From the IMG/VR virus record IMGVR_UViG_3300031152_000004, positions 1 through 55,611 of that record: a DNA stretch of 55,611 bases. One strand, written 5' to 3'. Position numbers and translations under genes: made by a program. The stretch's first letter is position 1. Each line of letters begins with the position of its first letter. Below are positions 3-38,999 of the stretch, piece after piece. The stretch comes from a virus (lineage: Duplodnaviria; Caudoviricetes). The notes under the pieces are model-generated. The model worked only from the letters and a program-made list of their open reading frames with translations, ran no database searches and was not told where the DNA came from.

Positions 3-233
3 GACGGCTCCTACAAGGGCCGGCGGCTGTGGACCAACACCAGCCTGGCCCCCCAGGCGGGGTTCCGGATCCGGGAGGTGTTCGACGCCCTGGGCTACAC
101 CCTGGACTCGGACACCAAGGAGATGATCGGGGACCGCTGCACCGCGTACGTGTCGCAGCAGGTCCAGGAGAAGGGCAAGAACGCGGGGAAGCTGCAGAAC
201 GTGATCGACTCGCTGGCCCCGATCGAGCCCTAG
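3..233 (+). CDS. C-terminal part of DUF669-like ssDNA-binding protein (N-terminus at window end)
   Basis: Frame 3 reads DGSYKGRRLWTNTSLAPQAGFRIREVFDALG...NVIDSLAPIEP*, which fits as the continuation of the ORF starting at 55460; lies between the AAA_24 ATPase region and the primase. Confidence 0.7.
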   Translation, partial: DGSYKGRRLWTNTSLAPQAGFRIREVFDALGYTLDSDTKEMIGDRCTAYVSQQVQEKGKNAGKLQNVIDSLAPIEP

Positions 234-249
234 CCGCCTGTCCCGCTCT

Positions 250-288
250 GTACCGGCCCGTCCCGCATGTCCGGGGGCGGGCCGGTAC
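250..288 (+). terminator. GC-rich hairpin, possible terminator without U-tract
   Basis: GTACCGGCCCGTCCC...GGGGCGGGCCGGTAC inverted repeat right after the stop at 233. Confidence 0.45.
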
Positions 289-313
289 CCGTCCGAACGA
301 GAGGGGGTGGCTG

Positions 314-2938
314 GTGCCGATACTACCTTCGGGCTGGCCGCTGGCCGGCGCCGCCGACCAGTATCTACGGGCGGGCCTGCGGGTCCTGCCGCTGCACGAC
401 CGGCAGAAGGCGCCGACGCTGAACTGGTCGAAGCTGCGCGACCGGCCGCTGTGGGACCTGGCGCAGCTGCAGGCCTGGGACCTGGCCACCGCTACCGGCC
501 TGTGGGTCCTGGTACAGGACCCCTGGGTGGTGCTGGACCTGGACTCCGATTCCAGCGTCGCCTTCTGGAAGAACCGCCTGGGCGCGCTGTACGGGCAGGC
601 GGGGGTCGCCCGTACAGCGCACGGGCAGCACCGCTGGTACCGGCTACCGGCCGGGGAGGGTGGGGACCACTGGACGGTCAAGGGCTACGGGTTCCACGTC
701 CGCGGGGCGGGTAAGGGCGGGGTAGTGGTACCGCCGTCGGTGCACGAGACGGGCTGGTGCTACCGCTGGGAGGTGCCGCTTCCCTCGGTCCCGGCGCTGC
801 CGGCCGGGTCCTGTGAAAGGTTCCACAAGGACAAGGACCGGTCGAACGTATCGACCCGGCTGGCGGACCGGTACAGCAACAAGGCCCTGGCCCAGGAGGT
901 CGCCGCGGTACTGGCGGCCGAACAGGGCGACCGCAACAACCAGCTGAACGCCAGCGCGTTCAACCTGGGCGGGATCGCCGGGATCGACCTGGCGCAAGTG
1001 CGGTCGGCGCTGTCCACGGCGGGCCTGCAAGTCGGGCTGGACCCTTTCGAGGTGGACAAGACCATCGACTCTGGTTTCGCTGCGGCGGTGGCGAAACCGC
1101 GGGCACCGCGGCGCCGCGCCGCAGCGGCACAGGACGGTTCCGGGCCGGCGGGGCTGACCGCCCCGGACGGGGTGCTGATGCACGGGGACAAGCGCTGGGC
1201 GGATTTCGACCTGGCCGCCACCGGGACGGTGCGGGACGCGGACGGGCGGGTCGCCGGCTACGAGGTGCGGATCGAGCCGTCCGGGGTAACGGACCTGCTG
1301 TCGGCTGAGCAGCTGGCGGACCGCAAGAAGCTGCTGACCTGGGAGGTCCGTAACCAGGTGACGATTCACGGGGAGCGGTCGGTGGGCAGCCGGCTGGCCG
1401 CCTACCTGGCCGGGCAGGACGCCCCGGGGGTGCGGGTGGTACCGCGGCTGGGCTGGGACGACACCGCCCAGGCGTACATCACCTTCGAGGGTCAGATCAC
1501 CGCCGCGGGCCTGTCGGAGGCCACCTCGGTGCGCCCGGACCCGGACCTACGCCGGCGTAACCAGGTGCAGTTCAGTTACGGGTTCGGTGACCTGCCCGTG
1601 GCTGTCTCGGTCCTGCGGCAGGTGCTGACCTTCCAGGACCCGACGGTCACGTCCGTCGTCGGCGCCTGGTACATGGCGGCCCACCTGAAGGGTCAGCTGA
1701 TGCAGAGGTCTGCGTTGTTCCCGGTGTTGGCCCTGGTCGCGCCGTCCGGGCACGGCAAGACCACCGGGTTCCCCCAGCTGATGCACCAGCTGGCCGGGTC
1801 CACCCGCGGGCAGGGGGTGGACACGATGGCGGCGTTCCGGGACCGGCTGGCGTCGCACCGCAACGGCCCGGCGTGGCTGGACGACCTGAACACCCTGGAG
1901 CACCTGGCGGAGGTCCTGCGGGCGGCGACCGCGGAGGGCACTTACTCCAAGAAGGACTCGGACGCCCGCGGGAACGTGGACGCGAAGCTGACCGCCCCGG
2001 TCATCCTGTCCGGGGAGGGCGGGGTGACCGACGACCAGAAGGCGCTGCTGGACCGCACCATCCAGATAGAGCTGCCGAATCCGCAGGGCAGACTGTCGGT
2101 GACCGGGTCGGGGCGGCCTCAGTGGGATGACATCCTGGACCTGGCCGCCCAGTACCCGGCCGGGCTGCACGTGTTCGCCGGGACGCTGGTAGCGGCGGCG
2201 CTGGGCCACGCCCCGGTGGTCGGGCAGCTGGCGTCGCTGCGGCCGTCGTCGGGGGGCCGGCATGCGGACAAGCTGGCCGTCCTGCGGGTCGGCGCCCGGG
2301 TCCTGGCGCAGGTCGTCCAGGACGACTCCCACATCGCCCGGGTGGACGCGTGGGTAGCCGGGCAGGTGGACCTGGGGGCGGAGAACACATTGACGCTGCG
2401 GGTCATACCGGCCTGCCTGCGGGTGTACGGGCCGGTGCTCGAGCCGGTCAGGGCAGACCCCGCCCCTTACTACGGGTTACCGACTCCGGTGCTGGTGCGC
2501 CCTGGCCCGGACGGCCGGCCGGCCCTGTGGGTGAACATCCCGGCGCTGGCCGCGTGGTGGTCGAAGTGGACTGGCGGGCGGGTGCAGGCCCGGACCGAGA
2601 CCGAGTCGGCGCTAGCCGACCAGGCCCGGGCGCTGGGTATGAAGGGAGAGCGTTCGGGGGTCATCGGGGCGGACTTCCAGAAGATCCGGCTGGGTGGTCG
2701 GAAGTCCGAGCGGCCGACCTACCAGATGGTTCCGGCAGATGTCAGCGCGCGGCTGCTCGTGGACTTCTCAGATGTGGTCGACGGGGGTGTCGACCACACC
2801 CTATTTGCGCTAGAGTCACGGGCACCCCTACCCGGGGCAGATGTACCCCAGGTTTCATCTACAGGGCAGACCTACCCTAGGCTATCGGTGTCCCAACAGG
2901 ATAGGGCTGCCCGCTCAACCCCCCGGAAGAGGTCCTAG
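314..2938 (+). CDS. Bifunctional primase/polymerase (Prim-Pol) fused to a P-loop helicase-like domain, 874 aa
   Basis: N-terminal VLPL..KAP, VVLDLD, RTAHGQHRWY and VVVPPSVH Prim-Pol motifs; RNNQLN helical domain; Walker A APSGHGKTT and WLDD; GTG start at 314 after GAGGGG. Confidence 0.85.
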   Translation: MPILPSGWPLAGAADQYLRAGLRVLPLHDRQKAPTLNWSKLRDRPLWDLAQLQAWDLATATGLWVLVQDPWVVLDLDSDSSVAFWKNRLGALYGQAGVARTAHGQHRWYRLPAGEGGDHWTVKGYGFHVRGAGKGGVVVPPSVHETGWCYRWEVPLPSVPALPAGSCERFHKDKDRSNVSTRLADRYSNKALAQEVAAVLAAEQGDRNNQLNASAFNLGGIAGIDLAQVRSALSTAGLQVGLDPFEVDKTIDSGFAAAVAKPRAPRRRAAAAQDGSGPAGLTAPDGVLMHGDKRWADFDLAATGTVRDADGRVAGYEVRIEPSGVTDLLSAEQLADRKKLLTWEVRNQVTIHGERSVGSRLAAYLAGQDAPGVRVVPRLGWDDTAQAYITFEGQITAAGLSEATSVRPDPDLRRRNQVQFSYGFGDLPVAVSVLRQVLTFQDPTVTSVVGAWYMAAHLKGQLMQRSALFPVLALVAPSGHGKTTGFPQLMHQLAGSTRGQGVDTMAAFRDRLASHRNGPAWLDDLNTLEHLAEVLRAATAEGTYSKKDSDARGNVDAKLTAPVILSGEGGVTDDQKALLDRTIQIELPNPQGRLSVTGSGRPQWDDILDLAAQYPAGLHVFAGTLVAAALGHAPVVGQLASLRPSSGGRHADKLAVLRVGARVLAQVVQDDSHIARVDAWVAGQVDLGAENTLTLRVIPACLRVYGPVLEPVRADPAPYYGLPTPVLVRPGPDGRPALWVNIPALAAWWSKWTGGRVQARTETESALADQARALGMKGERSGVIGADFQKIRLGGRKSERPTYQMVPADVSARLLVDFSDVVDGGVDHTLFALESRAPLPGADVPQVSSTGQTYPRLSVSQQDRAARSTPRKRS

Positions 2939-3138
2939 TGGTCTGCGTGGTCGACATGTGGTCGACGGGGATGTCGACCACAAGACGGGCCGGTCAGAGG
3001 GGGTGTTAATGGGTGGGTCGACTATTGGTGCCGAAAGACCCATATACGACGCGGTGCAACGGAGTCGCCTCGCGCGTGGGCGCGCTACGCGCGGGCAACA
3101 CACCGGGGGGGGTCTTTCTCCGGGGGATGTCGACCACA
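2772..3138. repeat. Cluster of palindromic GTGGTCGAC/GTCGACCAC repeats, candidate replication origin
   Basis: ATGTGGTCGACGGGG(G/A)TGTCGACCACA at 2772-2798 and 2956-2982; partial copies at 2947-2955 and 3122-3138. Confidence 0.55.
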
Positions 3139-3164
3139 TGGAGTAAATCGACGAGAGGACTACG

Positions 3165-3362
3165 GTGACTAAGAGTAAAGAAGCACTGCGGCTGGCGGCC
3201 CAGTCGACCTGGCTGGACCGGCGGATCAGCTACGCCCAGGAGCAGGTCGAGGCGCACCAGCGGCGGATCGCCGGCTGGCAGGCGGAGAAGGAGGAGACCG
3301 ACCGGCGGATCCGGGAGCTTGACGAAGAGACAAATACTACGGAAGGATCGTCGGGTGCCTAA
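3165..3362 (+). CDS. Hypothetical coiled-coil protein, 65 aa
   Basis: GAGAGGA RBS; overlaps the polymerase start. Confidence 0.6.
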   Translation: MTKSKEALRLAAQSTWLDRRISYAQEQVEAHQRRIAGWQAEKEETDRRIRELDEETNTTEGSSGA

Positions 3363-5394
3363 GACGCGGAGCGAGGTGGTCCAGTTGGCTCAGCGGGGCT
3401 GGCTGCCCTCGTCGTTACCGGACGTGATGGGTGAGGTGTCGTGTGACACGGAGACGTCGGGGCTGTTCGCCGACGACGGGGCGCGGACCTCGACCGTCTC
3501 GGTCGCCTGGTGGGACCACGCCTGCTCGCTGTCGGTGTTCCGCGGGTCGGGGACGCCCTGGGGTGACGCCCTGGACGCCGGAGGCTCGCCCGACTGGGTG
3601 TTCTGTGAGTCGGACGACTGCGTCCGGTCCGCGGCGTTCCCGTTCGATCAGGGGACCGAAGGGAAGCCGGAGGACAACGGGCAGGGCTCGCTGTTCGACT
3701 CGGACGTGAACCTGCCCCGGGCCGAGTGGGACACGCTCCTGTCGTGGCTATCGGCCCGGCCGCTGGTGTTCCACAACGCCCCGTTCGACCTGGAGAAGCT
3801 ACGGGTCGGGACCCGACTGTGGCCCGGGCGGGAGCTGGAGCACGCGTTCTGGTGGGACACCCAGACCGGCTGCAAGGAGCTGTGGCCCCTGTCGGGTACG
3901 ACCTCACTGAAGCCGACCGCCGAGCGGCTGTGGCCCGGAACCGGCATGCGCGAGTACGAACAGCGGATCAAGACCTACCTGACCCGCAACAAGCTACCGG
4001 CGGGCCGCTACGACCTGATCCCGTGGGACATCCTGGGGCCCTACGCTGACATGGACGCCCGGCAGACCCTACGTCTACGCGCCAGGCAGGCTCGAGTTCT
4101 TTGGGAGGGCAGCGGAGTACCGTCATGGTGCCATCGGGAGTTCGCCCTGGGCAAGATCCTGTACCGGATGACGCGCCGCGGGGTGCCGTACGACGCCCCA
4201 GCATCCCTGGCTGCAGCCGCCCAGATCCAGCAGGTCCGGGCCAAGATCGCCGCCGGACTGCCATTCGTCCCCAACACCCCGGCGGCCAAGAAATACTTCT
4301 TCGGGGTGGGTCGCACCGCTAAGGGGCAGCCCTGCCTAAACTTGCCCCCCTATGCCGTCACCGAGAAGAACAGGGAACCCCAGCTGACCGCTGAGATCCT
4401 CGACCGGATGGTCAAAGTCCAGGTTCCATACGCCGGGGAGTACGCCTCCTGGTCCCAGCTGGAGACCGCCGAGTCGATGTGGTACCGCGGCTACGCCGAG
4501 AAGATCGGGACCGACGGCCGGCTACGCGCCTCCTTCCGGCAGGTCAAGGTCGTATCCGGGCGTTACTCGGCCGAACGGGTGCAGCTGCACGCCATCCCAC
4601 ACGACTACCGCCTGACCTCCTACTCGCTGCTGGAAGGGATCCCCACCCCCCGGGCGATGATCTGCTCGGCGGTCGCCCGGCTGACCGGCTGGAGCCTGTG
4701 GGAGCTGGACTGGGCCCAGGCGGAACTGCGCGCCGCCGCGGTCACCGCCGGCTGCACCCGGATGCTCGAGGCTTTCTCCCTGGGGACGGACCTGCACGGG
4801 TACACCGCGACCGAGCTGTTCCACACCGACCCCTCGTCCGTCCGGTGGCCGCTGATCCGGCAGGTCGGCAAGCGGGCGAACTTCACGCTGTGTTTCGGGG
4901 CCGGCTGGCCCACCTTCCAGGCGATGGTCCGCAAGGAGACCGGGGTCCTGATCGAGGACGAGGAAGCCGAGCGGGTCGTCACCGACTGGAACGGGCTATA
5001 CCCCGAGTATGAGCGGGCCAGCCGCAGGTGGGCACGCAGGGCCGACATCGACCGGCGGGTGCGGCTGATCAACGGCCGCCAGCGGTGGTTCCGAGAGGAC
5101 GAGTACACCCACAAGGCGTTCAACCAGTACATTCAGGCGTCCCTGGCCGAACTCGGTAAGGACCTGATGCTGGAGGTCGAGGAGCGGATGCAGGACGCCG
5201 GCATACCCCAACTCGGAATCTCATCCGGGATCGGGGAGGCCGGGATGCTGCTGACCGTGCACGACTCGGTCCTACTGCTGCTGCCGGACGACCGGGCTCC
5301 CTCGATCGTCGCCGGCATTTGCGCCTGGGGGTCGGACTACGGTACCCGGATGTTCAAGGTCCCGATGCTGCTAGAGGCGAAGAGGTGGTCATGA
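3355..5394 (+). CDS. Family A DNA polymerase with 3'-5' exonuclease and no 5'-3' exonuclease (DpoZ candidate), 679 aa
   Basis: ExoI CDTETSG, ExoII FHNAPFD, ExoIII YADMDA; motif A LDWAQAELR, motif B RQVGKRANFTLCFG, motif C TVHDS; close to purZ. Confidence 0.9.
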   Translation: MPKTRSEVVQLAQRGWLPSSLPDVMGEVSCDTETSGLFADDGARTSTVSVAWWDHACSLSVFRGSGTPWGDALDAGGSPDWVFCESDDCVRSAAFPFDQGTEGKPEDNGQGSLFDSDVNLPRAEWDTLLSWLSARPLVFHNAPFDLEKLRVGTRLWPGRELEHAFWWDTQTGCKELWPLSGTTSLKPTAERLWPGTGMREYEQRIKTYLTRNKLPAGRYDLIPWDILGPYADMDARQTLRLRARQARVLWEGSGVPSWCHREFALGKILYRMTRRGVPYDAPASLAAAAQIQQVRAKIAAGLPFVPNTPAAKKYFFGVGRTAKGQPCLNLPPYAVTEKNREPQLTAEILDRMVKVQVPYAGEYASWSQLETAESMWYRGYAEKIGTDGRLRASFRQVKVVSGRYSAERVQLHAIPHDYRLTSYSLLEGIPTPRAMICSAVARLTGWSLWELDWAQAELRAAAVTAGCTRMLEAFSLGTDLHGYTATELFHTDPSSVRWPLIRQVGKRANFTLCFGAGWPTFQAMVRKETGVLIEDEEAERVVTDWNGLYPEYERASRRWARRADIDRRVRLINGRQRWFREDEYTHKAFNQYIQASLAELGKDLMLEVEERMQDAGIPQLGISSGIGEAGMLLTVHDSVLLLLPDDRAPSIVAGICAWGSDYGTRMFKVPMLLEAKRWS

Positions 5395-5552
5395 AGCTAC
5401 GATTGCAGCTGATCCCGGACGACGGGACGACCGTGTATCAGAAAGTGCTGGAACCGGTCGACCCGCAGGACCCGGGACTAGAGTACGACCTGCCCCAGGC
5501 GGTCGCTGACCTGGACCGGCAGTACCAACGAGACAAGGAGAAGCGCGGATGA
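5391..5552 (+). CDS. Hypothetical protein, 53 aa
   Basis: ATGA overlaps with both neighbours (MKLRLQLIPDDG...). Confidence 0.6.
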   Translation: MKLRLQLIPDDGTTVYQKVLEPVDPQDPGLEYDLPQAVADLDRQYQRDKEKRG

Positions 5553-6634
5553 AGCTGAGCGTCGTAGTCGGAGGGCAGTACGGGTCCGAGGGGAAAGGCG
5601 CTGTCGCCGGGCACCTCGCCGCGCGGTCCGAACAGCCCGTAGTCGCAATCCGGGTCGCCGGGCCGAACGCTGGGCACACCGTCTACGGCCGATGCCCCGG
5701 ACAGGTGTGTGGCCTCCAGGACGGCCACCTGGACTCGCTTCCGGTCGGTGAGGGACACCCCTGGAAGCTGCGGCAGGTGCCGGTCGCCGCGGTGACCCGA
5801 CCTGATGCGGTCCTGGTCATCGCCGCCGGGTCCGAGGTCGACCTGGCCGTACTGGAAGCGGAAGTAGCGGCCCTGGACTCGGCCGGGTACGACGCCTCCT
5901 CACGGCTGATGGTCGACTTCCAGGCATCGGTGATCGACCCCGGCTTCCTGGAATCGGAAGCTGAGCTGGTCGCCCGGATCGGGTCCACCGGGAAAGGCGT
6001 CGGCAAGACCCGGGCCGCCCGTATCATGAGGACCTGCGACCTGTACGGGACCAGGAGACGTTGGGCGGTACGTGACGCCTGGCAGGCCATCGCCGGCCCG
6101 GTTCACGTCATCGTCGAAGGGACCCAGGGCTACGCACTCGGGTTGCACGCCGGCTGGTACCCGTACTGTACCTCCAGCGACTGCCGCGCCATCGACTTCA
6201 TGTCCATGGCGGGGATCCCGCCCCAGGCAGCCGACGTGTGGGTCGTACTGCGGACCTGGCCCATCCGCGTCGCCGGTACCAGCGGGCCCATGCACCAGGA
6301 GGTCACCTGGGACGTCGTCGGACAGCCAGTCGAAAGAACGACCGTGACCAACAAGGTCCGCCGGGTCGGGCGCTGGGACCGCGACCTCGCCCGCGCTGCC
6401 GTCAAAGCCAACGGCCGGTGCAAGGTCGCGCTGACCATGGTCGACTACGACCTGCCGTTCCTGGCTGGGGAAACCGGAAGCTACGGCGCCTGGGCCGCTG
6501 CCGCCGGGATGACCTACGGGCCCGGCATCGACCCGGTGGTCCTGGCCGAGAAGTACCTCGCCACCGTCGAATCGGACTGCGGCGCACCTATCCGGCTGGT
6601 CGGTACCGGCCCCGACACGATCCTGGAGCGGTGA
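5549..6634 (+). CDS. purZ: Diaminopurine (2-aminoadenine) synthetase PurZ, PurZ0-like, 361 aa
   Basis: PurA-fold motifs GGQYGSEGKG (Ser in place of the PurA catalytic Asp), GPNAGHT, IGSTGKG, EGTQG, YPYCTS, PIRVAG.SGP, TTVTNKVRR, LTMVD, GTGP; short archaeal-type length; near a family A polymerase. Confidence 0.88.
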   Translation: MKLSVVVGGQYGSEGKGAVAGHLAARSEQPVVAIRVAGPNAGHTVYGRCPGQVCGLQDGHLDSLPVGEGHPWKLRQVPVAAVTRPDAVLVIAAGSEVDLAVLEAEVAALDSAGYDASSRLMVDFQASVIDPGFLESEAELVARIGSTGKGVGKTRAARIMRTCDLYGTRRRWAVRDAWQAIAGPVHVIVEGTQGYALGLHAGWYPYCTSSDCRAIDFMSMAGIPPQAADVWVVLRTWPIRVAGTSGPMHQEVTWDVVGQPVERTTVTNKVRRVGRWDRDLARAAVKANGRCKVALTMVDYDLPFLAGETGSYGAWAAAAGMTYGPGIDPVVLAEKYLATVESDCGAPIRLVGTGPDTILER

Positions 6635-6635
6635 C

Positions 6636-7004
6636 GTGCAGGAGAACCCGAACGCCACCGACCTGGTGGAGGCCATCAACCGGCTGACCGAGTGGTGGGA
6701 GAAGCTGGCCCAGCAGGACATCAACGCGACTGTCCCCAAGGCTGTCGAATACGGCGCCTACGACCTGGACATCATGGGGCAGGCCATGGTCGCCCTGGCC
6801 GACGGCATGTGGACCGGCGCCACCCAGGAGGAGCGCCTCGCGATCGGGCGGGAAATGGCCTGCGCGTTCTACCTGCTCGGAAAGACCGCCCGGATCTTCT
6901 CCGCCTTCCAGCGGGGCGAACGGCCTTCGGACGACACCTGGCTGGACGTCACCGTCTACTCGGTGATGGCCCGGCGGATCCGCCAGACCGGGATGTGGCC
7001 GTGA
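6636..7004 (+). CDS. All-alpha NTP pyrophosphohydrolase-like protein (DUF1599/Nmad1-like; possible MazZ analogue), 122 aa
   Basis: K..EYG, GK.AR and DDTWLD...Y pattern resembles DUF1599/MazG-superfamily motifs; directly downstream of purZ. Confidence 0.55.
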   Translation: MQENPNATDLVEAINRLTEWWEKLAQQDINATVPKAVEYGAYDLDIMGQAMVALADGMWTGATQEERLAIGREMACAFYLLGKTARIFSAFQRGERPSDDTWLDVTVYSVMARRIRQTGMWP

Positions 7005-7234
7005 AGATCACCATCTACCGGACCGCGGCCGTCGACCCCGCCATCCTCGCCGAGATCCCCAGCGCCGTCATCGAACACGAGCACGACAGCCTGACCTGGC
7101 GGGTAGAAGCCGGGGTACTGTTGGTGACCCGGCCGCCCGTCGGCTACGGTGACGGGCAATACCCCGCCCTCAAGCTGACCTGGGGGTACCCGACAAACGC
7201 CATCGACCGGTTCGAGATACGGGAGCGACCATGA
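7001..7234 (+). CDS. Hypothetical protein, 77 aa
   Basis: GTGA/ATGA coupled overlaps; MKITIYRTAAVD... Confidence 0.6.
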   Translation: MKITIYRTAAVDPAILAEIPSAVIEHEHDSLTWRVEAGVLLVTRPPVGYGDGQYPALKLTWGYPTNAIDRFEIRERP

Positions 7235-7485
7235 CCGTACTGACCCAGACGACCGACCTGCTGAAGCACGACGGGTGGACCTTCCACCGCGAAGGCGAAC
7301 TCATCTCGCCCGACGCGAAATGGATCGTCAAGACGGGTTACGCTAGCTTCGAGTCATACTTGCAAATACAAAAACCTGGCCACCCGCCCGTCCTGATCGA
7401 ACACCTGCGCCTGCGAGAAGACCACGACGGGTTGCCCGCGGTGCTGACCTGGCTGGCCGGCTGGGGGATCTACCTTGGCCCGTAA
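7231..7485 (+). CDS. Hypothetical protein, 84 aa
   Basis: Coupled start with GGGAG RBS. Confidence 0.6.
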   Translation: MTVLTQTTDLLKHDGWTFHREGELISPDAKWIVKTGYASFESYLQIQKPGHPPVLIEHLRLREDHDGLPAVLTWLAGWGIYLGP

Positions 7486-7687
7486 GCCGGCGCCACGCGG
7501 GATGGCCGGGTGGACCACCGAGGTTGCCCAGCGCGGGGCCGGCTGCCAATACCGGGCCGGCCCCTACACCTGCTGGCGCCGGAACCCCGTCCACCAAGGG
7601 GCGCACTACGACCTGGACCGGCACGAGTGGTTCGGCAAGGTTGGCAGGACCGTGGAACACTACCCAGCCGGGAAGGAAACCAAGTGA
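7475..7687 (+). CDS. Small Cys/His protein, 70 aa
   Basis: C-x8-C-x5-H-x3-H pattern; stop overlaps the next GTG. Confidence 0.5.
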   Translation: MARKPAPRGMAGWTTEVAQRGAGCQYRAGPYTCWRRNPVHQGAHYDLDRHEWFGKVGRTVEHYPAGKETK

Positions 7688-8544
7688 GATTCGTCTACCT
7701 CGCCCAGCCGATCGACCTGGTAGGAGCCGACGACCCGACCCAGCTGACCTGGCTGGCCCAGGACGTCAAGGCCGCCCTGGTTAAAACCGGCATCGGCTGG
7801 TACGACCCGCAAGCAGCCTGGCGCACCCCGGCCGGCCTCCAGGTCGGGCGGGAGGTCCGGCAGGTCAACCTGTGGGCACAGGGCCGTTGCGAGGGAATGA
7901 TCGCCCTCCTGCCCGACAACGTCCCCAGTGCCGGTGTTCCGATCGAGATCGAACGCGCGATGGTCCAATGGGACCAGCCCGTGGCCATCCTCGGCGGGAC
8001 CCAGCGCTGGGCGCTGCCCCCGAACGGGCGCCGCGCCTACTTCAACCTGGACGCCGTCGCCGCGGTCGAGTGGCTGGCCGACCAGCAGGTGCCGCAGATC
8101 CCCCGCCCGGACCCGTTCAGCGTCAAGCTCCTGAGCCCCGCCGGGAAGCTCCCGACCAAGACCCACGCTGACGACGCCGGGTACGACCTGTACGTCTCCG
8201 AACGGGTCACCATCCCCGCCGGCCAGTTCCGCGACGTCCCGTGCGGAATCGCCATCCAGCTGCCGGACCGCTGCTGGGGGATGATCGTCGGCAGGAGCAG
8301 CACCATCCGCAAGCGGGGCCTGCTGGTCCAGCCCGGCGTGATCGACACCGGCTGGCGCGGCGAGCTGTTCGCCGCCGTCCAGCACTTGGGGGGTGGGCCG
8401 CCCACGGTGATCGAGGCCGGCGACCGAATCGCCCAGCTGCTGATATTCGACAACACGTCGATGCGACTCGGCCCACCCCAGGAGGTCAACGAGCTGGAGG
8501 CCCACGCCCGCGGCATCAACGGATTCGGGTCCAGCGGCCTGTAG
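7684..8544 (+). CDS. Fusion of a nucleoside 2-deoxyribosyltransferase/DNPH1(RCL)-like N-glycosidase domain and a trimeric dUTPase-like domain, 286 aa
   Basis: N-terminal VYLAQPI...SAGVPIEIERA (S-x-G-x3-E); C-terminal AGYDL, GRSS, GVIDTGWRG, GDRIAQL and RG.NGFGSSG; GTG start after GGAAGGA. Confidence 0.8.
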   Translation: MRFVYLAQPIDLVGADDPTQLTWLAQDVKAALVKTGIGWYDPQAAWRTPAGLQVGREVRQVNLWAQGRCEGMIALLPDNVPSAGVPIEIERAMVQWDQPVAILGGTQRWALPPNGRRAYFNLDAVAAVEWLADQQVPQIPRPDPFSVKLLSPAGKLPTKTHADDAGYDLYVSERVTIPAGQFRDVPCGIAIQLPDRCWGMIVGRSSTIRKRGLLVQPGVIDTGWRGELFAAVQHLGGGPPTVIEAGDRIAQLLIFDNTSMRLGPPQEVNELEAHARGINGFGSSGL

Positions 8545-8571
8545 ACACCCCGGGGAAATCTGGGGTACGCT
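8542..8571 (+). promoter_or_regulatory. SigA-type promoter for the packaging genes
   Basis: TAGACA-N18-TACGCT, then GGGAGG RBS and ATG at 8591. Confidence 0.5.
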
Positions 8572-8590
8572 TTGCCTGGGAGGCAAGCGA

Positions 8591-9286
8591 ATGCCGAAGG
8601 CTACGCCGGACCGCGGCGCAGATGGGAATATCCGACCTGAGCTGAAGGCTGTCAAGCAGAGGTTCTGCGGGGGGAGGAAGGCCAACCGCGGGCCGGAGGC
8701 ACCGACCTGCAAGCAGCCAGCCGGTTACGGCACCGACCACCCTGGCTGGGGTCACTGCGCCTGGCACTTCGGGCAGTCCCCCAGCGGGAAGCAGTACGCC
8801 GAGAAGGTCCGGACCGAGGCCCACGCCTGGCGCGCCGCGCTGGACCTGGGCATCTCGGTCGACACCACGCCGGAACGTGCGCTGGCGGACGAGATCAACC
8901 GGTCGGCCGGGCTGGTCGCCTGGATCCAGGACCAGATCCAGCACGCCTGGCCCACCGATGACGACGGCCTGGTCGAGGTCGAATACTTCGACGCACTGGG
9001 CGTCCCGCGCAAGGCTAAGGTTACGCCGCTGGCGGCACTAACCTCCCACCCGGCGACCCGGGCCGTGATGGAGGCGTACCGGGACGAGCGCGCCCACCTC
9101 GCCCGGGTCGCCAAGATGGGCGTCGATGCCAACCTGGTCGACCGCCAGCTGAAGCTGGACGGCCAGCGCGTCGACCTGATGTCCGGCCTGATCGCAGCGA
9201 TCATCACAGACCTCGGTCACGACCCGAACGACAACCAGGTGCGGGCAGTCGTGTCCCGCCGGCTGCTCGCCATTACTGCATCTTGA
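8591..9286 (+). CDS. terS: Terminase small subunit (putative)
   Basis: CGG...C...AG.GTDHPG.G.C..H Zn-binding N-terminus plus helical C-terminus; upstream of the large terminase. Confidence 0.65.
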   Translation: MPKATPDRGADGNIRPELKAVKQRFCGGRKANRGPEAPTCKQPAGYGTDHPGWGHCAWHFGQSPSGKQYAEKVRTEAHAWRAALDLGISVDTTPERALADEINRSAGLVAWIQDQIQHAWPTDDDGLVEVEYFDALGVPRKAKVTPLAALTSHPATRAVMEAYRDERAHLARVAKMGVDANLVDRQLKLDGQRVDLMSGLIAAIITDLGHDPNDNQVRAVVSRRLLAITAS

Positions 9287-9295
9287 GGAGAGCGG

Positions 9296-9568
9296 ATGTT
9301 GCTGACGCTGGCGGTGTGGTCCGCAGCTGCGGACGGTGGTTTAGGCGACTACGGGCCGCTGCTGAACCTGGGCGCGGTTGGCGTTATTTGCGGCGTGTTG
9401 ATCGCTTTCGCCAGGACGACCGTGGCCGACCTGAAGGCTCAGCGCGACAAGGCGCAGGAGGACGCGGAGGCTTTGAACAGGGAGATCCGAGAGAGTTTCG
9501 TCCCGGCAATGGTGGAGTCCAACCGGGTGTTGAACCGCGTGGTTACGATCCTGGACGATCGTAGGTGA
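9296..9568 (+). CDS. Membrane protein with coiled coil (holin-like), 90 aa
   Basis: Hydrophobic LLNLGAVGVICGVLIAF followed by a heptad-rich tail; GAGGAG RBS. Confidence 0.6.
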   Translation: MLLTLAVWSAAADGGLGDYGPLLNLGAVGVICGVLIAFARTTVADLKAQRDKAQEDAEALNREIRESFVPAMVESNRVLNRVVTILDDRR

Positions 9569-10129: not shown

Positions 10130-10380
10130 CGAGAATGGGACCTAGCCGAACCCGGAAGGTGCTGCGGTTCCGTAGCCGGGTCGAGCGGGTCGTGCAGTAC
10201 GGCCGGCCCGAAGACGACTTCGCGACCCACCTCACCGTCGCAGACTGGGAGGACCTGGGACGCCCGGACGAGATTACCGTCACAGTAGAACCCGGGGACC
10301 AGCTGAATAACGAGGCGCGGCTGGACAGTGAGGCCATAGCCCTGGCCAAGGTGTGGCAGGATGCCGTCGACGGTAAGTAA
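10126..10380 (+). CDS. Hypothetical protein, 84 aa
   Basis: GGGAGG RBS; W..LG.P..I.VTVEPG motif. Confidence 0.6.
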   Translation: MTRMGPSRTRKVLRFRSRVERVVQYGRPEDDFATHLTVADWEDLGRPDEITVTVEPGDQLNNEARLDSEAIALAKVWQDAVDGK

Positions 10381-11827
10381 GGACTTGACCGCCCTGGCAG
10401 GCCTGTGGGGTCCGCGGGTCGACTACGCCGCGGACCCCACCCGCTGGGTCACCGAGCGGATCGGCGCGTTCCTGTGGTCGGTCCAGCGTCGGGTCATGGA
10501 GCTGGTCCGGGACCACCGGTACGTGGCCGTCCCGTCCTGTCACGACGCCGGCAAGAGCTACCTGGCCGCTGCGATCGCCTGTTGGTGGCTGGACTCCCAC
10601 ACGGTCGGCGAGGCGTTCGTGGTGACCACCGCCCCCACCGACGCCCAGGTTAAGGCCATCCTGTGGCGCGAGATCGGCAAGATGCAGCGCGCCGGGGGGC
10701 TGGCGGGGAAGGTGACCAAGCAGGCCCACTGGTATATGGGCCCGGACAACGTCGAGCTGGTCGCCTACGGCCGGAAGCCCGCCGACCACGTCTCCCACGA
10801 GGAAGCCGCTGCGTCGTTCTCCGGGATCCACGCCAGGTACGTCCTGATCATCCTGGACGAGGCCGGCGGCATCCCGGTCTGGCTGTACAACGCGGTGGAC
10901 ACCCTCGCCACGAACGTACACTGTCGGGTGCTGGCGATCGGCAACCCGGACGACCCCGGTAGCCAGTTCGCTAAGGTGTGCGCGCCCGGGTCCGGGTGGA
11001 CCGTCCAGCCGATCTCCGCCTTCGATACCCCGAACTTCACGGACGAGGCCGTCCCGGAGTACCTGAACGACCTGCTGATCTCCAAGGTCTGGGTGCAGGA
11101 GCGCAAGAAGCGCTGGGGCGAGAAGAACCCGCTGTATCAGTCGAAGGTGCTGGGCCTGTTCCCGGAGGTCGGAGACCACAACCTGATTCAACCCGCCTGG
11201 GTCCTGGCCGCACAGAACCGCTCCATTGTGCCCAACCAGTTCGACTCGGTCCTGGGGGTAGACGTCGCCAGGTTCGGGTCGGACGAGACCTGCGGCTACC
11301 TGCGGCAGGGCAACCACATCCGGCGGGTGTTCTCCGGGCACGGCTGGCCGACCACCGAGACCACCGGCAAGGTCAAACAGTTCATCTTCGGCAACACCCA
11401 CCCGGTGCGCGCCCAGGTGGACGACGTCGGGGTCGGCGGGGGGGTGCTGGACCAGCTGGTGGAGGACGGGTTCGACGCGGTCGGATTGAACGGCGGGTCC
11501 ACCTGCAAGCAGAAGCTTAAGGACGGTCGCAACCGCTTCGTCAACGCCCGGTCGGAGTGGTACTGGGAGCTGCGCGGGAAGCTACAGGACGGCGAGATCG
11601 ACCTGGACCCTGAGGACGACGACCTGGCCGCCCAGCTGGTGGACATCCGCTGGGGGACGAACTCGAAAGGCCAGATCTGGGTCGAGGCCAAAGAGGACAT
11701 GAAGGCGCGCGGGGTGGACTCGCCGGACCGGGCGGACGCCGTGGTCTACTCCAACGCGACAGCGCACCAGGCGCAGCCGGTCGCCCGGACCCAGATCCGG
11801 GACCGGCGCCTGGCCGGCCGGCGCTGA
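10361..11827 (+). CDS. terL: Terminase large subunit
   Basis: Walker A SCHDAGKS, Walker B LIILDEA, IGNP coupling motif, RNase H-like GVDVARFGSD and SPDRADA. Confidence 0.93.
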   Translation: MPSTVSKDLTALAGLWGPRVDYAADPTRWVTERIGAFLWSVQRRVMELVRDHRYVAVPSCHDAGKSYLAAAIACWWLDSHTVGEAFVVTTAPTDAQVKAILWREIGKMQRAGGLAGKVTKQAHWYMGPDNVELVAYGRKPADHVSHEEAAASFSGIHARYVLIILDEAGGIPVWLYNAVDTLATNVHCRVLAIGNPDDPGSQFAKVCAPGSGWTVQPISAFDTPNFTDEAVPEYLNDLLISKVWVQERKKRWGEKNPLYQSKVLGLFPEVGDHNLIQPAWVLAAQNRSIVPNQFDSVLGVDVARFGSDETCGYLRQGNHIRRVFSGHGWPTTETTGKVKQFIFGNTHPVRAQVDDVGVGGGVLDQLVEDGFDAVGLNGGSTCKQKLKDGRNRFVNARSEWYWELRGKLQDGEIDLDPEDDDLAAQLVDIRWGTNSKGQIWVEAKEDMKARGVDSPDRADAVVYSNATAHQAQPVARTQIRDRRLAGRR

Positions 11828-12843: not shown

Positions 12844-14553
12844 ATGGCGTCCATGGGCTTTAGAGCGTTCATCCAGGACAACTGGACCCCGCTGTCCTAC
12901 AAGCGGACGATGGGCAATACGGCCTCCCCCGGGTCGACCTTCACTCAGCCGATCTGGGTCGGGGAGCACCAGCGCAGGTTGACCGCTTACCAGCTGCTGC
13001 AGGCGTACCTGGACAACGCCGCCCGCTACTACCTGCCCGACGCGGACGCTGACGCCAAACAGCTACACCGCGAGTACGGTGACCCTGCGTTGTTGCGTGA
13101 CACCATCCTGGACGCCCTGCTGGGGCAGTCTCAGCAGATCGAGGTGGACGGCGCCGCGGACGCCGGCAAGGACGGCGCCGGGCCCGACGCCCAACCCGCC
13201 GCGGACCTGCAGGAGTGGCTGCGGCAGCTGTGGGGCGACGAGCGCGGGCAGCTGAAGCTGATCGAGGTCGAGCGGGACGCGGTCGGGCTGGGGGACGGCG
13301 TCTACACCCTGGGCTGGTCCGCCGAGAAGGGACGCCCGCGGATCCGCGTCTGGGACCCCGGGTTCTACTTCCCTGTGCTGACCGACGGGAACGAGGACGA
13401 CTTCCCGGAGCGAGTCCACATCGCCTGGGAGATCGACCGCACCGGGGTCGCCAACCCCCCGGACGGCAAGGTAGTGGTCCGCCGGCTGACCTGGGAGCTG
13501 GTCGACCTGGAGATCCCGGTCACCCACCCCTGGAACGACGCCCCCTCGACCAAGACCTGCGTGTACACGGACGCGACCTGGTTCTACGACCCCGGCCAGA
13601 CCAGCACCATCGACCAGCTGGACACTTCCGCGGCGCGGTACGCCGTCGGCGAGGACGGGCTGGAGATCCGCCAGGTCGACATGCAGATCGACTTCGTGCC
13701 GGTAGTGCACGTCCCGAATACCGTATCGGTGAAGGAGCACTACGGGCGCTCGTCCATCGCCACGATCCTGCAGCTGCTGGATGACATCGCCTCGGCCGAC
13801 ACCGACCTGGCCGCCGCAGGGGTAACCGTAGCCAGCCCGACCATGACCCTGGAGAAGGGCACGCTGGGTCAGACCGAGCCGACCTACCGGCCCGGTGAGG
13901 TGTGGGAGACCGGAGACGGGAAGCTGTCCCTGTTGGACAACTCCCGCGGCCTGGACGCCCTGCTGAAGCTGGTTGAACACCTGCTGGCGCGGCTATCGGT
14001 GAACGCCCGGGTGCCCGAGTCCATCATGGGCAGGGTGAAGCCGTCGGAGGTCCCCAGCGGAATCGCGCTGGCACTTTCGTTCGGCCCCCTGGCCGGCATG
14101 ATCACGAAGATGCGACTGGCCCGGGAGGACAAGTACCCGATCCTGTTCCGGTTCATGTGGCGGATGGGCCTGGCCGGGAAGATGCCGGACGTCCCGGCGA
14201 CCTGGTACCCGACCAGCCTGGCGTTCGGGTCGTACCTGCCCAGCGACCTGGCCTCAGTAGTCGAACTGGTGGTGAAGCTGCGCGCGTCCAGCCCGCCCGT
14301 GATCTCCGCGGAGACCGCCATCGACGTGCTGGTGTCAGCTGGGATGAACGTGGACGACGCGGAGCAGGAGGTCGCCCGGATCGAATCCAGGGACTTCGCC
14401 GGGGCCGCGGAGCTGCACAACGCCACCGGCTCGGCGCAACTCGCCGCCGACTACCTGCAGGTCGACCTGCCGGAGCCGCCACCGACGCCGGTCCTACCGG
14501 TGCCGGGCGGGCCGGAGGTCGTACCCCCGATCCCGCCCGGCCCACCGGCCTAG
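12844..14553 (+). CDS. Portal protein
   Basis: 569 aa downstream of TerL; GDG, FVPVVHVPN, YGRS and SG.AL motifs typical of actinophage portals. Confidence 0.85.
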   Translation: MASMGFRAFIQDNWTPLSYKRTMGNTASPGSTFTQPIWVGEHQRRLTAYQLLQAYLDNAARYYLPDADADAKQLHREYGDPALLRDTILDALLGQSQQIEVDGAADAGKDGAGPDAQPAADLQEWLRQLWGDERGQLKLIEVERDAVGLGDGVYTLGWSAEKGRPRIRVWDPGFYFPVLTDGNEDDFPERVHIAWEIDRTGVANPPDGKVVVRRLTWELVDLEIPVTHPWNDAPSTKTCVYTDATWFYDPGQTSTIDQLDTSAARYAVGEDGLEIRQVDMQIDFVPVVHVPNTVSVKEHYGRSSIATILQLLDDIASADTDLAAAGVTVASPTMTLEKGTLGQTEPTYRPGEVWETGDGKLSLLDNSRGLDALLKLVEHLLARLSVNARVPESIMGRVKPSEVPSGIALALSFGPLAGMITKMRLAREDKYPILFRFMWRMGLAGKMPDVPATWYPTSLAFGSYLPSDLASVVELVVKLRASSPPVISAETAIDVLVSAGMNVDDAEQEVARIESRDFAGAAELHNATGSAQLAADYLQVDLPEPPPTPVLPVPGGPEVVPPIPPGPPA

Positions 14554-15026: not shown

Positions 15027-15887
15027 CTACTCCTCCCCCAGGATCTCCAGAGCCTCCGCCCGGGTCGGGTACCAATAACCGTGATTGGAAGCGCACTTCT
15101 CGCCGTAGCCGGCCGCGCGGGACTGCGGGTCGGACAGGTCCGCACCGCAGCTGCCGCAGCTCTTGGTCTTCTCCCCGTACAGCCGCGCCGAGTCCTCGAC
15201 CCCGGCCACCCGGATCCGCTCCAGCAGGGTCGCAGTGGCGGCTTTCGAGAGCCGCTGCTCGGCGAAGTCGCCCGGAGCGCCGATCAGCAGCGAGGCGAAC
15301 ACGAACCCGGCCCACCTGCCACTGCCGTGGTCGACCTTGTAGAAGTCCACCGTCCGGTCGCTGCCCTGGACCGCGTACCGCCCGGCTGGGACACCAGCCT
15401 GCAACGACGGGCCGACCACCGTCGGGGCCTGCCGGGGCAGGTACACCTGCGGGTCACCGATGAACCGGGCGCCGCGGTCGTGCTCCAGCTTCTCGACCTG
15501 CGCCAGGGTCTTCTCAATCAGCGCCGACGCCGCCCGCTTGGACAGCTTCGCCCGCTCGTCCGCGGTCGCATCGACCAGGTTCGATCCGGCCAGCTGGTCG
15601 ACCTTCGACAGCAGGACGGCCAGGTAGCGCAGCTGCGCATCGGTCGCGCCGTCGGGCCGGTGCGTCGCGACCTCGGCTTCGGGGGTGGGTCGCCGCTGCG
15701 GCTCCGGCTCCACTGCCTGCCTGCCCGGCGTGGCCAGCCAGGTCCAGTCGCCGGCCTGCGCCAGCACCAGCAGGTGGTCCTGGCGGGTGTCGGGGCGACC
15801 GTGCTCGTCGCGGCTGGCCTTCGCCTCAAGCATCATCGCGAGGGTGGCGCTGCGGTCGGCTTTCGAGTCGATCAGGATGTTAGCCAT
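15027..15887 (-). CDS. Hypothetical protein with C-terminal DUF6011-like Zn finger, 286 aa
   Basis: ATDAQLRYL motif; VPAGRYAV; CGSCGADLSDPQSRAAGYGEKCA; GGAGG RBS. Confidence 0.7.
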   Translation of the reverse strand: MANILIDSKADRSATLAMMLEAKASRDEHGRPDTRQDHLLVLAQAGDWTWLATPGRQAVEPEPQRRPTPEAEVATHRPDGATDAQLRYLAVLLSKVDQLAGSNLVDATADERAKLSKRAASALIEKTLAQVEKLEHDRGARFIGDPQVYLPRQAPTVVGPSLQAGVPAGRYAVQGSDRTVDFYKVDHGSGRWAGFVFASLLIGAPGDFAEQRLSKAATATLLERIRVAGVEDSARLYGEKTKSCGSCGADLSDPQSRAAGYGEKCASNHGYWYPTRAEALEILGEE

Positions 15888-16321
15888 TAGGAGTGCCTCC
15901 GGTTGATGTCGTGGCGGCTCATGCCCATTGCAGTCGCGACGACTGCGATCCACCAAACGGAGGCGCAGTCACCGGGCAGGGCGTCCGGGTCGACGGCGTA
16001 GATGTCGCGGGTCGGGCGGAGATCTGCCTGCCAAACGGGGTCGTTCATCCGCGAGACGACTGGTCGCATGTCCTTGCTTCTGGCTAGCCGGTACATCCGA
16101 CGACGATACTTGGTTCGCAGAGCGTCGGTCGGCAAGGTCCTGATTGCCCGCTGCCAGACCTGCTCGGTCTTGTACATCGGGTACTCGGTCGTCCAGGCGG
16201 TCAGGGTCTGGCGAACCAGGTTTGCGACGTGGCGGGCGTCGTGGCCGGGAGCGTAGTTGCGGGTGGTCCAGGCGCGGCAACCGCAGAGGCATTGCTGGCC
16301 TTGGCTCACGGTTTCCGTCAT
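15887..16321 (-). CDS. Leaderless CxCGC...PGHD-motif protein, 144 aa
   Basis: MTETVSQGQQCLCGCRAWTTRNYAPGHDARH; ATG 6 nt after the -10 box. Confidence 0.7.
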   Translation of the reverse strand: MTETVSQGQQCLCGCRAWTTRNYAPGHDARHVANLVRQTLTAWTTEYPMYKTEQVWQRAIRTLPTDALRTKYRRRMYRLARSKDMRPVVSRMNDPVWQADLRPTRDIYAVDPDALPGDCASVWWIAVVATAMGMSRHDINRRHS

Positions 16322-17646: not shown

Positions 17647-18681
17647 ATGCCACTCGTCACCGATCTGTTCGACCCCTCGGAACTCGTCGGATACGTCCGC
17701 GGGCTCACCATCGAAGAGCAGCGCAACCGGTTCACCCTCTCGCAGTACCTGCCGGACAAGCTGCAGAACTCCCTGGAGTGGAAGCTCACCAACGCCGTCC
17801 TGCGCGACGAGGACGCCGCGGTAGTCCGCTCCTGGGACACCGAAGCGCCGATCGGCGGCCGTCAGGGCGCCAGCCGAATCTTCGGCGAGCTGCTGCCGGC
17901 CTCCAAGAAGATCCGCCTGGGCGAGGAGGAGCGGCTCAAGCAGGAGTCGCTGATCACTGGCAACACCGACGCCATCGTCGCGGAGATCTACAACGACGCC
18001 CGCCGGATGACCCGCGCCGTCCTGGCCCGGGTCGAGATGGCCCGCGGTGAGGTCCTGTTCAACGCCTCCATCGCCTTCAACGAGAACGGCGTCACCCAGA
18101 CCGTCACCTTCACCCGCAACGGCGCGCTCACCGTCAGCGCGGGAACGAAGTGGGACGTCGTCGCCACTGCGGACCCGATCGCCGACATGACCACCTGGGT
18201 CCAGACCTACATCGACATCAACGGCGTGGCCCCCGCGTTCGCCATCGGCTCGACCTCGATCATCGGGTTCCTGCTGCAGAACGCAAAGATCCGGGCGTTG
18301 GCGTCCGGCCTGTCCGGCACCCCGTCGCTGGTCACCCTGGACACCGTCGCCGCGGTGTTCTCCGCGTTCGGCCTCCCGCCGATCGTCCCCTACGACACCA
18401 CCACCCGGGTCAACGGCACCAGCACCCGCATCACCAACATCAAGAAGCTGGTTCTGATGCCGCCGTCGGACGAGCCCCTGGGGGAGACTCGCTGGGGGCC
18501 GACCGCCGAGGCACTGGAACTGGCCGGCCAGGGCCTGCTAGGGGTCTCTGACGCCCCCGGTGTCGCCGCCGTCGCCATGAAGACCACCGACCCGGTGTCC
18601 ACCTGGACGCTGGCCACCGGGACGTTCCTGCCGATCCTGGGCAACCCCGACCTGACCATGACCGCGACGGTCCTGACCTAG
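17647..18681 (+). CDS. Major capsid protein (lambda gpE-like)
   Basis: 344 aa; R.WDTEAPIG, ARVE..RGEVL, W.....DP.AD, T.WGPTAEA. Confidence 0.88.
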   Translation: MPLVTDLFDPSELVGYVRGLTIEEQRNRFTLSQYLPDKLQNSLEWKLTNAVLRDEDAAVVRSWDTEAPIGGRQGASRIFGELLPASKKIRLGEEERLKQESLITGNTDAIVAEIYNDARRMTRAVLARVEMARGEVLFNASIAFNENGVTQTVTFTRNGALTVSAGTKWDVVATADPIADMTTWVQTYIDINGVAPAFAIGSTSIIGFLLQNAKIRALASGLSGTPSLVTLDTVAAVFSAFGLPPIVPYDTTTRVNGTSTRITNIKKLVLMPPSDEPLGETRWGPTAEALELAGQGLLGVSDAPGVAAVAMKTTDPVSTWTLATGTFLPILGNPDLTMTATVLT

Positions 18682-38828: not shown

Positions 38829-38999
38829 ATGGAGTTTGATGCGATGCTACCACCCGACGAGCACCCGCTGGCCCGAGCGGAGGCGAACCTCCACTCAGTG
38901 ACTGACGACGAGTTCTTCGCCGCACTGCTGGAGCCGAAGCTGACCGACCAGGACGGCGTCGCGGTCGACCCCACGGAGGGCGTGGTGGACGACCGGTGA
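38829..38999 (+). CDS. Acidic leaderless protein, 56 aa
   Basis: MEFDAMLPP...; coupled to the endolysin gene. Confidence 0.55.
   Translation: MEFDAMLPPDEHPLARAEANLHSVTDDEFFAALLEPKLTDQDGVAVDPTEGVVDDR

Follow-up and report, generated by a model that had tools for sequence, protein, structure and literature searches.

A predicted PurZ0-type 2-aminoadenine DNA operon in an uncultured phage record and the unannotated helical protein family that follows purZ0

In the PurZ0 phages Wayne and Ghobes, DutZ and DmtZ take the place of DatZ and MazZ, and DatZ, MazZ-2 and DUF550 are assigned to the PurZ group and not to PurZ0 (Poubanne et al., NAR, Feb 2026, PMC12884076). The same source reports dutZ in 98 of 98 PurZ0 genomes and dmtZ in 85 of them, 77 of these as a fusion. 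DmtZ of Wayne and Ghobes converts dAMP to adenine and transfers deoxyribose-5-phosphate onto 2-aminoadenine (Z); in the Wayne fusion the Dut domain yields monophosphates from dATP, dGTP and dUTP, and the fusion turns dATP mainly into adenine in vitro (PMC12884076). Here we analyze a 55,611-bp stretch of phage DNA (IMG/VR record IMGVR_UViG_3300031152_000004, positions 1 to 55,611; below, the window), in which a block at 3355-8544, with every gene on the + strand, is very probably a replication and nucleotide-pool operon with a PurZ0-type Z-DNA system. Judged from its proteins, the window is a divergent member of the known PurZ0/DmtZ-DutZ kind, its PurZ0 being at most 51% identical to those of cultured phages. 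An earlier reading made from the sequence only had described the pathway as non-canonical; the DatZ-free PurZ0 set is indeed present, but the novelty is not, as such sets were characterized in 2026 and now form the second known type. The part of the block that looks new, and for which PMC12884076 offers no explanation in its main text, is a protein of 122 amino acids (aa), here termed dom122, encoded next to purZ0.

The genes of the block follow one another in the order family A DNA polymerase, a 53-aa open reading frame (ORF), PurA homologue, dom122, three small ORFs and a 286-aa fusion protein; the four that the sequence-only reading had named (polymerase, PurA homologue, 122-aa protein and fusion) were all found on the + strand. 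Overlaps of 4 nucleotides (nt), ATGA or GTGA, join the polymerase gene to orf5391, orf5391 to purZ0, dom122 to orf7001, orf7001 to orf7231, and orf7475 to the fusion gene, and purZ0 and dom122 are separated by a gap of 1 nt. No terminator-like site was found on the + strand within 2800-9400, and the tight coupling first noticed in the sequence is borne out by these junctions. The small ORFs, all on the + strand, encode 53 aa (5391..5552, with ATGA overlaps at both ends), 77 aa (7001..7234, with GTGA and ATGA overlaps with its neighbors), 84 aa (7231..7485) and 70 aa (7475..7687; G+C at third codon positions, GC3, 0.86), the last with a stop codon that overlaps the GTG at 7684 of the next gene. 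The 53- and 77-aa products had no family match, and the 84-aa product no significant one.

The PurA homologue (5549..6634, + strand, 361 aa) is a predicted N6-succino-2-amino-2'-deoxyadenylate synthase of the PurZ0 type. It matched PF00709 (E 5e-36) and phrog_1211 (E 1e-77), the latter annotated as a PurZ-type synthetase; its closest relative of solved structure was 7VF6 (E 4e-64), followed by archaeal PurA 2d7u (3e-33), phiVC8 PurZ (2e-27) and S-2L PurZ (7e-20). The first of these is the PurZ0 of Gordonia phage Archimedes (Methods, PMC12884076). Phage records gave matches of two kinds, at 38-51% identity to proteins of actinophages and at 26-31% to PurZ of proteobacterial phages or cyanophages; among cultured phages, Galactica (51%) and Hiyaa (48%) have the closest PurZ0. 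The sequence contains ...GGQYGSEGKGAV... and ...KVALTMVDYD..., in which both motifs singled out by the sequence-only reading, GSEGKG and LTMVD, were confirmed. At the position of the catalytic Asp of PurA the protein has a Ser (S13, in a P-loop that reads GSEGKG); the corresponding motif is GSEAKG in seven of seven PurZ0 references, GSTGKG in ATP-type PurZ and GDEGKG in Escherichia coli PurA. The segment T296-M-V-D299, which aligns with T-K-L-D of E. coli PurA, which we take to be part of the guanine-nucleotide pocket, is kept in the window protein and lost from ATP-type PurZ; the columns of the ATP-stacking pair F295/Y298 hold L305 and E308. Residues Y11, S13 and T264 correspond by alignment to F12, S14 and T262, which form the dGMP 2-amino pocket of the Vibrio enzyme (bioRxiv 10.1101/2025.10.22.683976). 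With the dGMP-pocket residues kept, the predicted reaction is the joining of dGMP and aspartate with GTP as the donor.

The placement of the protein was examined in a maximum-likelihood tree of 35 rows, consisting of the window protein, 7 PurZ0 references, 3 ATP-type PurZ, 23 metagenomic proteins (from 120 listed) and E. coli PurA as the outgroup. The window protein fell in the PurZ0 clade (branch support 97/95), away from ATP-type PurZ (100/99), and within it formed a subclade with three metagenome-only proteins at 68-70% identity. Taken together, the best solved match, the clade, and the Ser and T-M-x-D residues uphold the assignment to the PurZ0 type; the phylogeny, which the sequence-only reading had proposed as a check, agrees, with E. 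coli PurA only as outgroup.

The last gene of the block encodes a DmtZ-like domain (7684..8103, + strand; aligned to Wayne, Sergei and Ghobes gp53) of the nucleoside deoxyribosyltransferase (NDT) fold, a predicted dAMP N-glycosidase and deoxyribose-5-phosphate transferase, joined to a DutZ-like dUTPase domain (8146..8544, + strand; PF00692 E 9e-24, residues 156-286, and E 1e-23 in a further scan). Both domains of the N-glycosidase-dUTPase fusion that had been read from the sequence were therefore found, but its start at 7510 had to be corrected. The gene most likely begins at the GTG at 7684 (286 aa), since the first 58 codons of the longer ORF are rich in Arg and Pro, and since the end of the separate 70-aa ORF (7475-7687) overlaps the start at 7684 by GTGA. 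The fusion aligns end to end with the Wayne (40% identity) and Sergei (39%) proteins, and 110 of the 859 phage records that match it cover at least 80% of the query. Its N-terminal domain matched Ghobes gp53 with an E value of 5e-5; its DutZ-like domain is 46-50% identical to the dUTPases of IndiRoo, Ghobes (gp55) and Archimedes (gp55). The key residues given for DmtZ, in Ghobes numbering, are the triad Tyr6/Asn77/Glu103 with Asp12, Pro57 and Trp124 (PMC12884076), and Ghobes gp53 bears exactly these residues at these numbers (Y6, D12, P57, N77, E103 and W124). All six have equivalents in the window protein (Y5, D11, P42, N62, E88 and W109), identical in seven of seven aligned sequences. These results support the view that the window fusion is a homologue of the assayed DmtZ-DutZ, with predicted activities on dAMP and on dATP, dGTP and dUTP; the "different nucleotide-pool toolkit" that the sequence-only reading had envisaged would be represented by this protein.

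The first gene of the block encodes a family A DNA polymerase whose N-terminal part is an exonuclease region (3355..5394, + strand; PF00476 E 2e-31). Its ORF spans 3319-5394, and the GTG at 3355 has a Shine-Dalgarno-like GGAAGGA upstream. Over its full length the polymerase is 39-40% identical to those of Sergei, Wayne and Ghobes (E 1e-134 to 1e-158), 27% to those of Hiyaa and Galactica and 22% to the DpoZ-2-type enzyme of Acinetobacter phage DMU1. The Wayne, Sergei and Ghobes polymerases belong to the DpoZ-1 group (PMC12884076). In a quick tree of 45 rows the window polymerase was placed in a 15-row clade (SH-aLRT 96) together with Wayne, Sergei, Ghobes and IndiRoo, but also with the non-Z phages Marky and LazerLemon; it appears to be of the Wayne/Ghobes type and DpoZ-1-like.

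A pathway can be drawn for the block by homology to the assayed enzymes of Wayne, Ghobes and Archimedes. PurZ0 would join dGMP and aspartate, with GTP as the phosphate donor, to give N6-succino-2-amino-dAMP, which host PurB and host kinases would convert to dZTP. The DutZ domain would turn dATP, and also dGTP and dUTP, to monophosphates, by which dATP would be removed and dGMP supplied; the fused DmtZ domain would convert dAMP to adenine and could place deoxyribose-5-phosphate on the free Z base. The Wayne/Ghobes-type family A polymerase would then replicate the genome.

The window was also searched for the enzymes of the canonical cluster. The profiles PF01966 (HD), PF12917 (YfbR-like) and PF13023 (HD_3), all of which match the positive controls, DatZ from S-2L and from Vibrio phage QH, had no six-frame match at E<=1; tblastn with the same two DatZ proteins gave a best E of 0.35, and the HD family was absent from Pfam and PHROG scans of the 68 called ORFs. 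The statement that no HD-domain protein is encoded is accordingly upheld for the 55.6 kb in hand, and the proposed profile search of the hypothetical ORFs brought up no DatZ homologue. By tblastn, S-2L MazZ, the DUF550-fusion and the DUF5664 proteins, those of Wayne and DMU1 among them, likewise found no counterpart in the record; PF18909 had no six-frame match at E<=10, and neither PF04447 nor PF18909 was matched by any ORF of the block. PurB is absent from the proteins encoded by the record, unlike Hiyaa and Galactica, which have their own. To this we added a survey of 80 of the 350 confirmed PurZ0 loci in IMG/VR, with up to 6 kb read on each side: DatZ and MazZ occurred in none, a dUTPase in 72, DmtZ in 65 (in one ORF with the dUTPase in 37 of these) and DUF5664 in 2, and the 8 loci lacking a dUTPase break off at most about 750 nt beyond the last gene that was identified. 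As DatZ and MazZ are not needed in the PurZ0 class, their absence is the rule.

Several points weigh against the reading of the block as a Z-DNA system. We infer every activity, and the presence of Z in virion DNA, from gene content, order, coupling, clade and residues. Since the PurA/PurZ tree was built without archaeal PurA, the line between PurZ0 and PurA is drawn by the E. coli outgroup together with the ranking of solved structures. The use of GTP by PurZ0, like the definition of PurZ0, is reported to come from Tong et al. (2023, Nat Microbiol), here as cited in two later papers. The record is rated only 76% complete, and a further gene could lie in the missing part. Finally, Marky and LazerLemon, two non-Z Streptomyces phages, are found inside the same polymerase clade at 37-38% identity, so that membership in this clade is no proof of Z selectivity.

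The last of these points is the mainstay of the alternative that survives best, although we consider it improbable: that the toolkit is present and the DNA is only partly Z-substituted, or not at all, with, for instance, PurZ0 and DmtZ-DutZ mainly reshaping the nucleotide pools and a polymerase that may not exclude A. The Marky and LazerLemon polymerases are about as close to that of the window as the DpoZ-1 references are, and neither phage has a PurZ match, the sole five Streptomyces records with one being Galactica, Spocter, Keanu and two of Hiyaa. Against this, the window has the full set of PurZ0, DutZ, DmtZ and Wayne-type polymerase, as in Wayne and Ghobes, which are treated as phages with Z-containing DNA (PMC12884076), and the destruction of dATP and dAMP by DutZ and DmtZ would be expected to deplete A. 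As naturally occurring non-Z counterparts, Marky and LazerLemon might be useful in judging the selectivity of DpoZ-1. In both, a gene for a MazG-type pyrophosphohydrolase lies directly 5' of the polymerase gene (L092:4672-7019 in Marky, L093:648-2998 in LazerLemon).

A second alternative, that the genome does have a DatZ- or MazZ-type gene outside the part in hand and a canonical cluster has been seen incompletely, is very improbable. The record is classed as linear, with a CheckV completeness estimate of 76%, and has no terminal repeat, the longest word common to both ends being 14 nt; these features leave room for further genes. On the other hand, DatZ and MazZ were found in 0 of the 80 related PurZ0 loci, and DatZ is a PurZ-group enzyme in the assignment cited at the outset. 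Moreover, datZ and mazZ adjoin purZ in S-2L and QH, and this neighborhood is fully read in the window. The contig begins just 5' of a PrimPol gene (1-2938) and stops just past a Sak4-like (AAA_24) gene (53966-55611). In Wayne and Sergei these two genes adjoin, which makes the contig ends neighbors in a Wayne-like gene order; the record may be almost an entire genome in permuted form, the estimate of 76% notwithstanding. The description of the genome as near-complete is only partly upheld: the main modules and the adjoining ends speak for it, the CheckV rating and the linear class against it. A third alternative, in which the PurA homologue would be a plain adenylosuccinate synthetase that raises AMP synthesis as the product of an auxiliary metabolic gene, is hardly credible: the protein matches PF00709 and has an archaeal PurA as its second-best solved relative, but the change of the catalytic Asp to Ser, the PurZ-type dGMP-pocket residues, the PurZ0 clade (97/95) and the nearby DmtZ-DutZ all argue against it. 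We therefore retain the PurZ0-type Z-DNA system as the most probable reading of the block.

The gene that directly follows purZ0 (6636..7004, + strand) encodes dom122, a four-helix protein of an unannotated, purZ0-linked family with no Pfam, PHROG or Protein Data Bank (PDB) match. Its AlphaFold2 model consists of four helices (pLDDT 94.3, pTM 0.81). The sequence-only reading had called it all-alpha and NTP-PPase-like; the first part is borne out by the model, and for the second no significant match of sequence or fold was found. Over residues 15-122, dom122 resembles the C-terminal domain encoded directly after purZ0 in Galactica, Hiyaa, Archimedes, Ghobes and IndiRoo (E 6e-23 to 2e-15); the Wayne and Sergei gene at this place, which encodes DUF5664, gave no match. 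An exhaustive HMMER search at E<=1e-3 gave 927 cluster representatives. Further members of the family were located at L005:8094-8657, L010:4065-4451, L001:9124-10071, L006:10110-11369, L002:7212-7736 and L094:4231-4875 in our set of loci. Nine residues are invariant in the family (K35, Y39, D43, Y79, K83, R86, D100, D104 and Y108); mostly charged or aromatic, they suggest a putative active or binding site. Many members have N-terminal extensions of 20-300 aa, of which 41 of 44 scanned had no Pfam match and 3 had one weak match each, and in some (P0121, P0123 and P0129) two dom122 copies are present in one protein.

The association of dom122 with purZ0 was found to be strict. In 78 of the 80 IMG/VR loci purZ0 is followed by a dom122 gene in the same orientation; measured between profile envelopes, the median distance is 13.5 nt and the range -145 to +888 nt. 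The two exceptions are Arthrobacter AK-type genomes, in which DUF5664 is found. Among 50,697 cultured-phage records dom122 occurs in 31, all of them PurZ0 phages and none from Arthrobacter; conversely, all 31 cultured non-Arthrobacter PurZ0 phage records carry it after purZ0. These comprise 18 Microbacterium, 6 Gordonia and 5 Streptomyces phages and one each of Micrococcus and Curtobacterium; the counts equal those of PurZ-bearing records in the four genera listed for such phages, and the Micrococcus record was checked by eye. All 31 proteins are annotated "hypothetical protein". In the Arthrobacter AK phages the slot after purZ0 is occupied by DUF5664-1 and not by dom122, and in the remaining Z clusters the slot after purZ is that of a dGTP/dATP pyrophosphohydrolase, namely MazZ (S-2L), a DUF5664-DUF550 fusion (Acinetobacter phages) or DUF5664-1 (Wayne).

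The relationship of dom122 to described families was sought at the levels of sequence and fold. No family recurred when dom122 and 75 or 44 of its relatives were scanned with Pfam and PHROG, the commonest match being DUF4345 (4 of 75, E 0.09 or worse), and sequence searches of the PDB gave best E values of 0.11 with the single protein and 0.24 with a 75-row profile. Profile comparison brought out no similarity to DUF5664, DUF550, MazZ, MazG or DatZ proteins: hhalign probabilities did not exceed 0.4% against single sequences of the Wayne and Sergei DUF5664 proteins, the DMU1 DUF5664-DUF550 fusion, S-2L MazZ, QH gp25 and two DatZ proteins, and were 0.4% against a 98-row DUF5664 alignment and at most 0.5% against the MazG proteins of Marky and LazerLemon. 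Foldseek with the dom122 model had 0 matches in the PDB at E<=1e-3; in VIA-align against 48,161 chains the best Z was 7.2, over part of the model only, and candidates from Foldseek that were re-examined reached a best Z of 6.5. AF_0060 (2p06_B), presumably a member of the all-alpha NTP pyrophosphohydrolase (MazG-like) superfamily, scored Z 6.2 over 85 residues, and iMazG (2q73_B) Z 5.1 over a partial alignment, both below the noise bar for helical proteins. In BFVD the only significant matches were to the family itself, followed by weak rows (E 0.2-0.9) of DUF6378 (8 of the best 50) and DUF1599. The nearest named clusters in the ESM Atlas, which are leads only, were DUF1599 (14% of members, score 0.92) and DUF6378 (10%, score 0.89). 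The weak leads (phage DUF1599 and DUF6378, AF_0060, iMazG) agree in direction, all of them below the noise bars. PF07659 and PF19905 had no match in the window at E<=10. When a model of DUF5664-1 (pLDDT 73.5) was compared with BFVD, the best 50 rows were all DUF5664 proteins, with none from the dom122 family. A complex prediction for PurZ0 with dom122, run without controls, gave no answer (score 0.02). In metagenomes, DUF5664 (PF18909; P0309, P0322, P0327, P0332, P0389 and others) is often fused to PF06941 (5'-nucleotidase type) or PF14359 (DUF4406); in one case the fusion partner is PF05014 (nucleoside deoxyribosyltransferase). These fusions echo the pairing of a deoxynucleoside triphosphate (dNTP) hydrolase with an NDT-type domain in DmtZ-DutZ.

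In its main text, PMC12884076 makes no mention of a dom122-type gene after purZ0, and according to its Methods genes were annotated by best Pfam hit. A dom122-type gene would be missed by such a procedure. We tentatively propose that dom122 is an undescribed, near-universal component of the PurZ0 pathway and, at its boldest, a dNTP pyrophosphohydrolase of a new fold family or another enzyme of dZTP supply, although the balance of probability lies somewhat against this proposal. If it is true, the published PurZ0 pathway would be without one step for most of its members.

With regard to the genome as a whole, the record has a G+C content of 68% (66-72% along its 55.6 kb), no tRNA genes were found in it, and megablast of the block against 50,697 phage records, among which those of the window's own genome may be lacking, gave zero matches. 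The virion genes are of siphovirus type, with all main modules present: terminase (10361-11827), portal (12844-14553), major capsid protein (17647-18681), tail tube protein (29349-29804), tape measure protein (30866-34909) and endolysin (38996-39889). For the major capsid protein, identity to cultured phages reaches 38% at most, with the best matches in Mycobacterium, Streptomyces and Gordonia phages. The phage is an uncultured siphovirus and probably an actinobacterial one. Upstream of the block lies a gene for a PrimPol/helicase-type primase (29..2938, + strand; PF09250 Prim-Pol E 3e-14 over residues 110-255, phrog_5177 E 9e-100), whose true start is probably downstream of 29 and whose position is that of the DNA primase/polymerase gene of Wayne and Sergei. 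Elsewhere in the record, a 323-aa protein (47625-48596) matches phrog_6247 ("DNA topoisomerase", E 3e-99) and has no Pfam family. The minor head protein (20047-21879) has a MuF-like N-terminus, a C-terminal match to a PHROG "peptidase" (E 1e-7) and a sub-threshold Pfam match to a metalloprotease of the lethal-factor type (E 1.4e-4; 22 bits, cut-off 27). The genome is mostly on the + strand; of the few - strand genes, the one at 15027-15956, which lies between those for portal and scaffold, encodes a DUF6011-containing protein, and the stretch 42182-43217 has the gene for an endonuclease VII-domain protein beside one for a small helix-turn-helix protein.

With the window, the PurZ0 phages gain an uncultured lineage that branches deeply, is distant from cultured phages in its capsid protein and has metagenome-only nearest relatives, and the cluster confirms that the DatZ-free solution of DutZ with DmtZ is widespread among high-GC phages. 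This bears on how restriction-resistant phage DNA is read in metagenomes, and it is of interest as a supply of enzymes with which to make Z-DNA. The more useful result is the strict linkage of dom122 to purZ0.

A comparison with the known Z systems places the block as follows. The canonical PurZ/DatZ/MazZ clusters (the S-2L, Vibrio phiVC8 and Acinetobacter SH-Ab 15497 groups) share with it a PurA-derived synthase with a P-loop Ser, and dATP-removing and dGMP-supplying enzymes beside replication genes. Their PurZ, however, is of the ATP type (GSTGKG; F295/Y298) and only 27-30% identical to the window PurZ0, and its partners, the HD-family DatZ and MazZ, DUF550 or DUF5664-2, are all missing from the window. 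Galactica and Hiyaa (Streptomyces phages, Hiyaavirus) have dom122 at the C-terminal end of the protein encoded next after PurZ0 (gp66, gp68) and a DmtZ-DutZ-like fusion 34-35% identical to that of the window; they differ in their genomes of 81-83 kb, in having their own PurB-like lyase and in a polymerase of another lineage (27% identity). The Arthrobacter phage Wayne (Korravirus) has the same gene order as the window, namely primase, small ORF, polymerase, PurZ0, helical gene, one or more small ORFs and DmtZ-DutZ. It shares the fusion architecture, the six DmtZ residues and the lack of DatZ, and its polymerase and PurZ0 are each 40% identical to those of the window. It differs in encoding DUF5664-1 (PF18909) after purZ0, where the window has the unrelated-looking dom122, in its genome of 44 kb as against at least 55.6 kb, and in identities of only about 40%. 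In the Gordonia phages Ghobes and Archimedes, DmtZ (gp53) and DutZ (gp55) are separate proteins, whereas in the window they are fused, and Ghobes gp51 has 85 additional N-terminal aa compared to dom122. In both phages a gene of the dom122 family (gp51; E 2e-16 and 4e-18, respectively) directly follows that of PurZ0, as in the window, and DmtZ and DutZ come after it.

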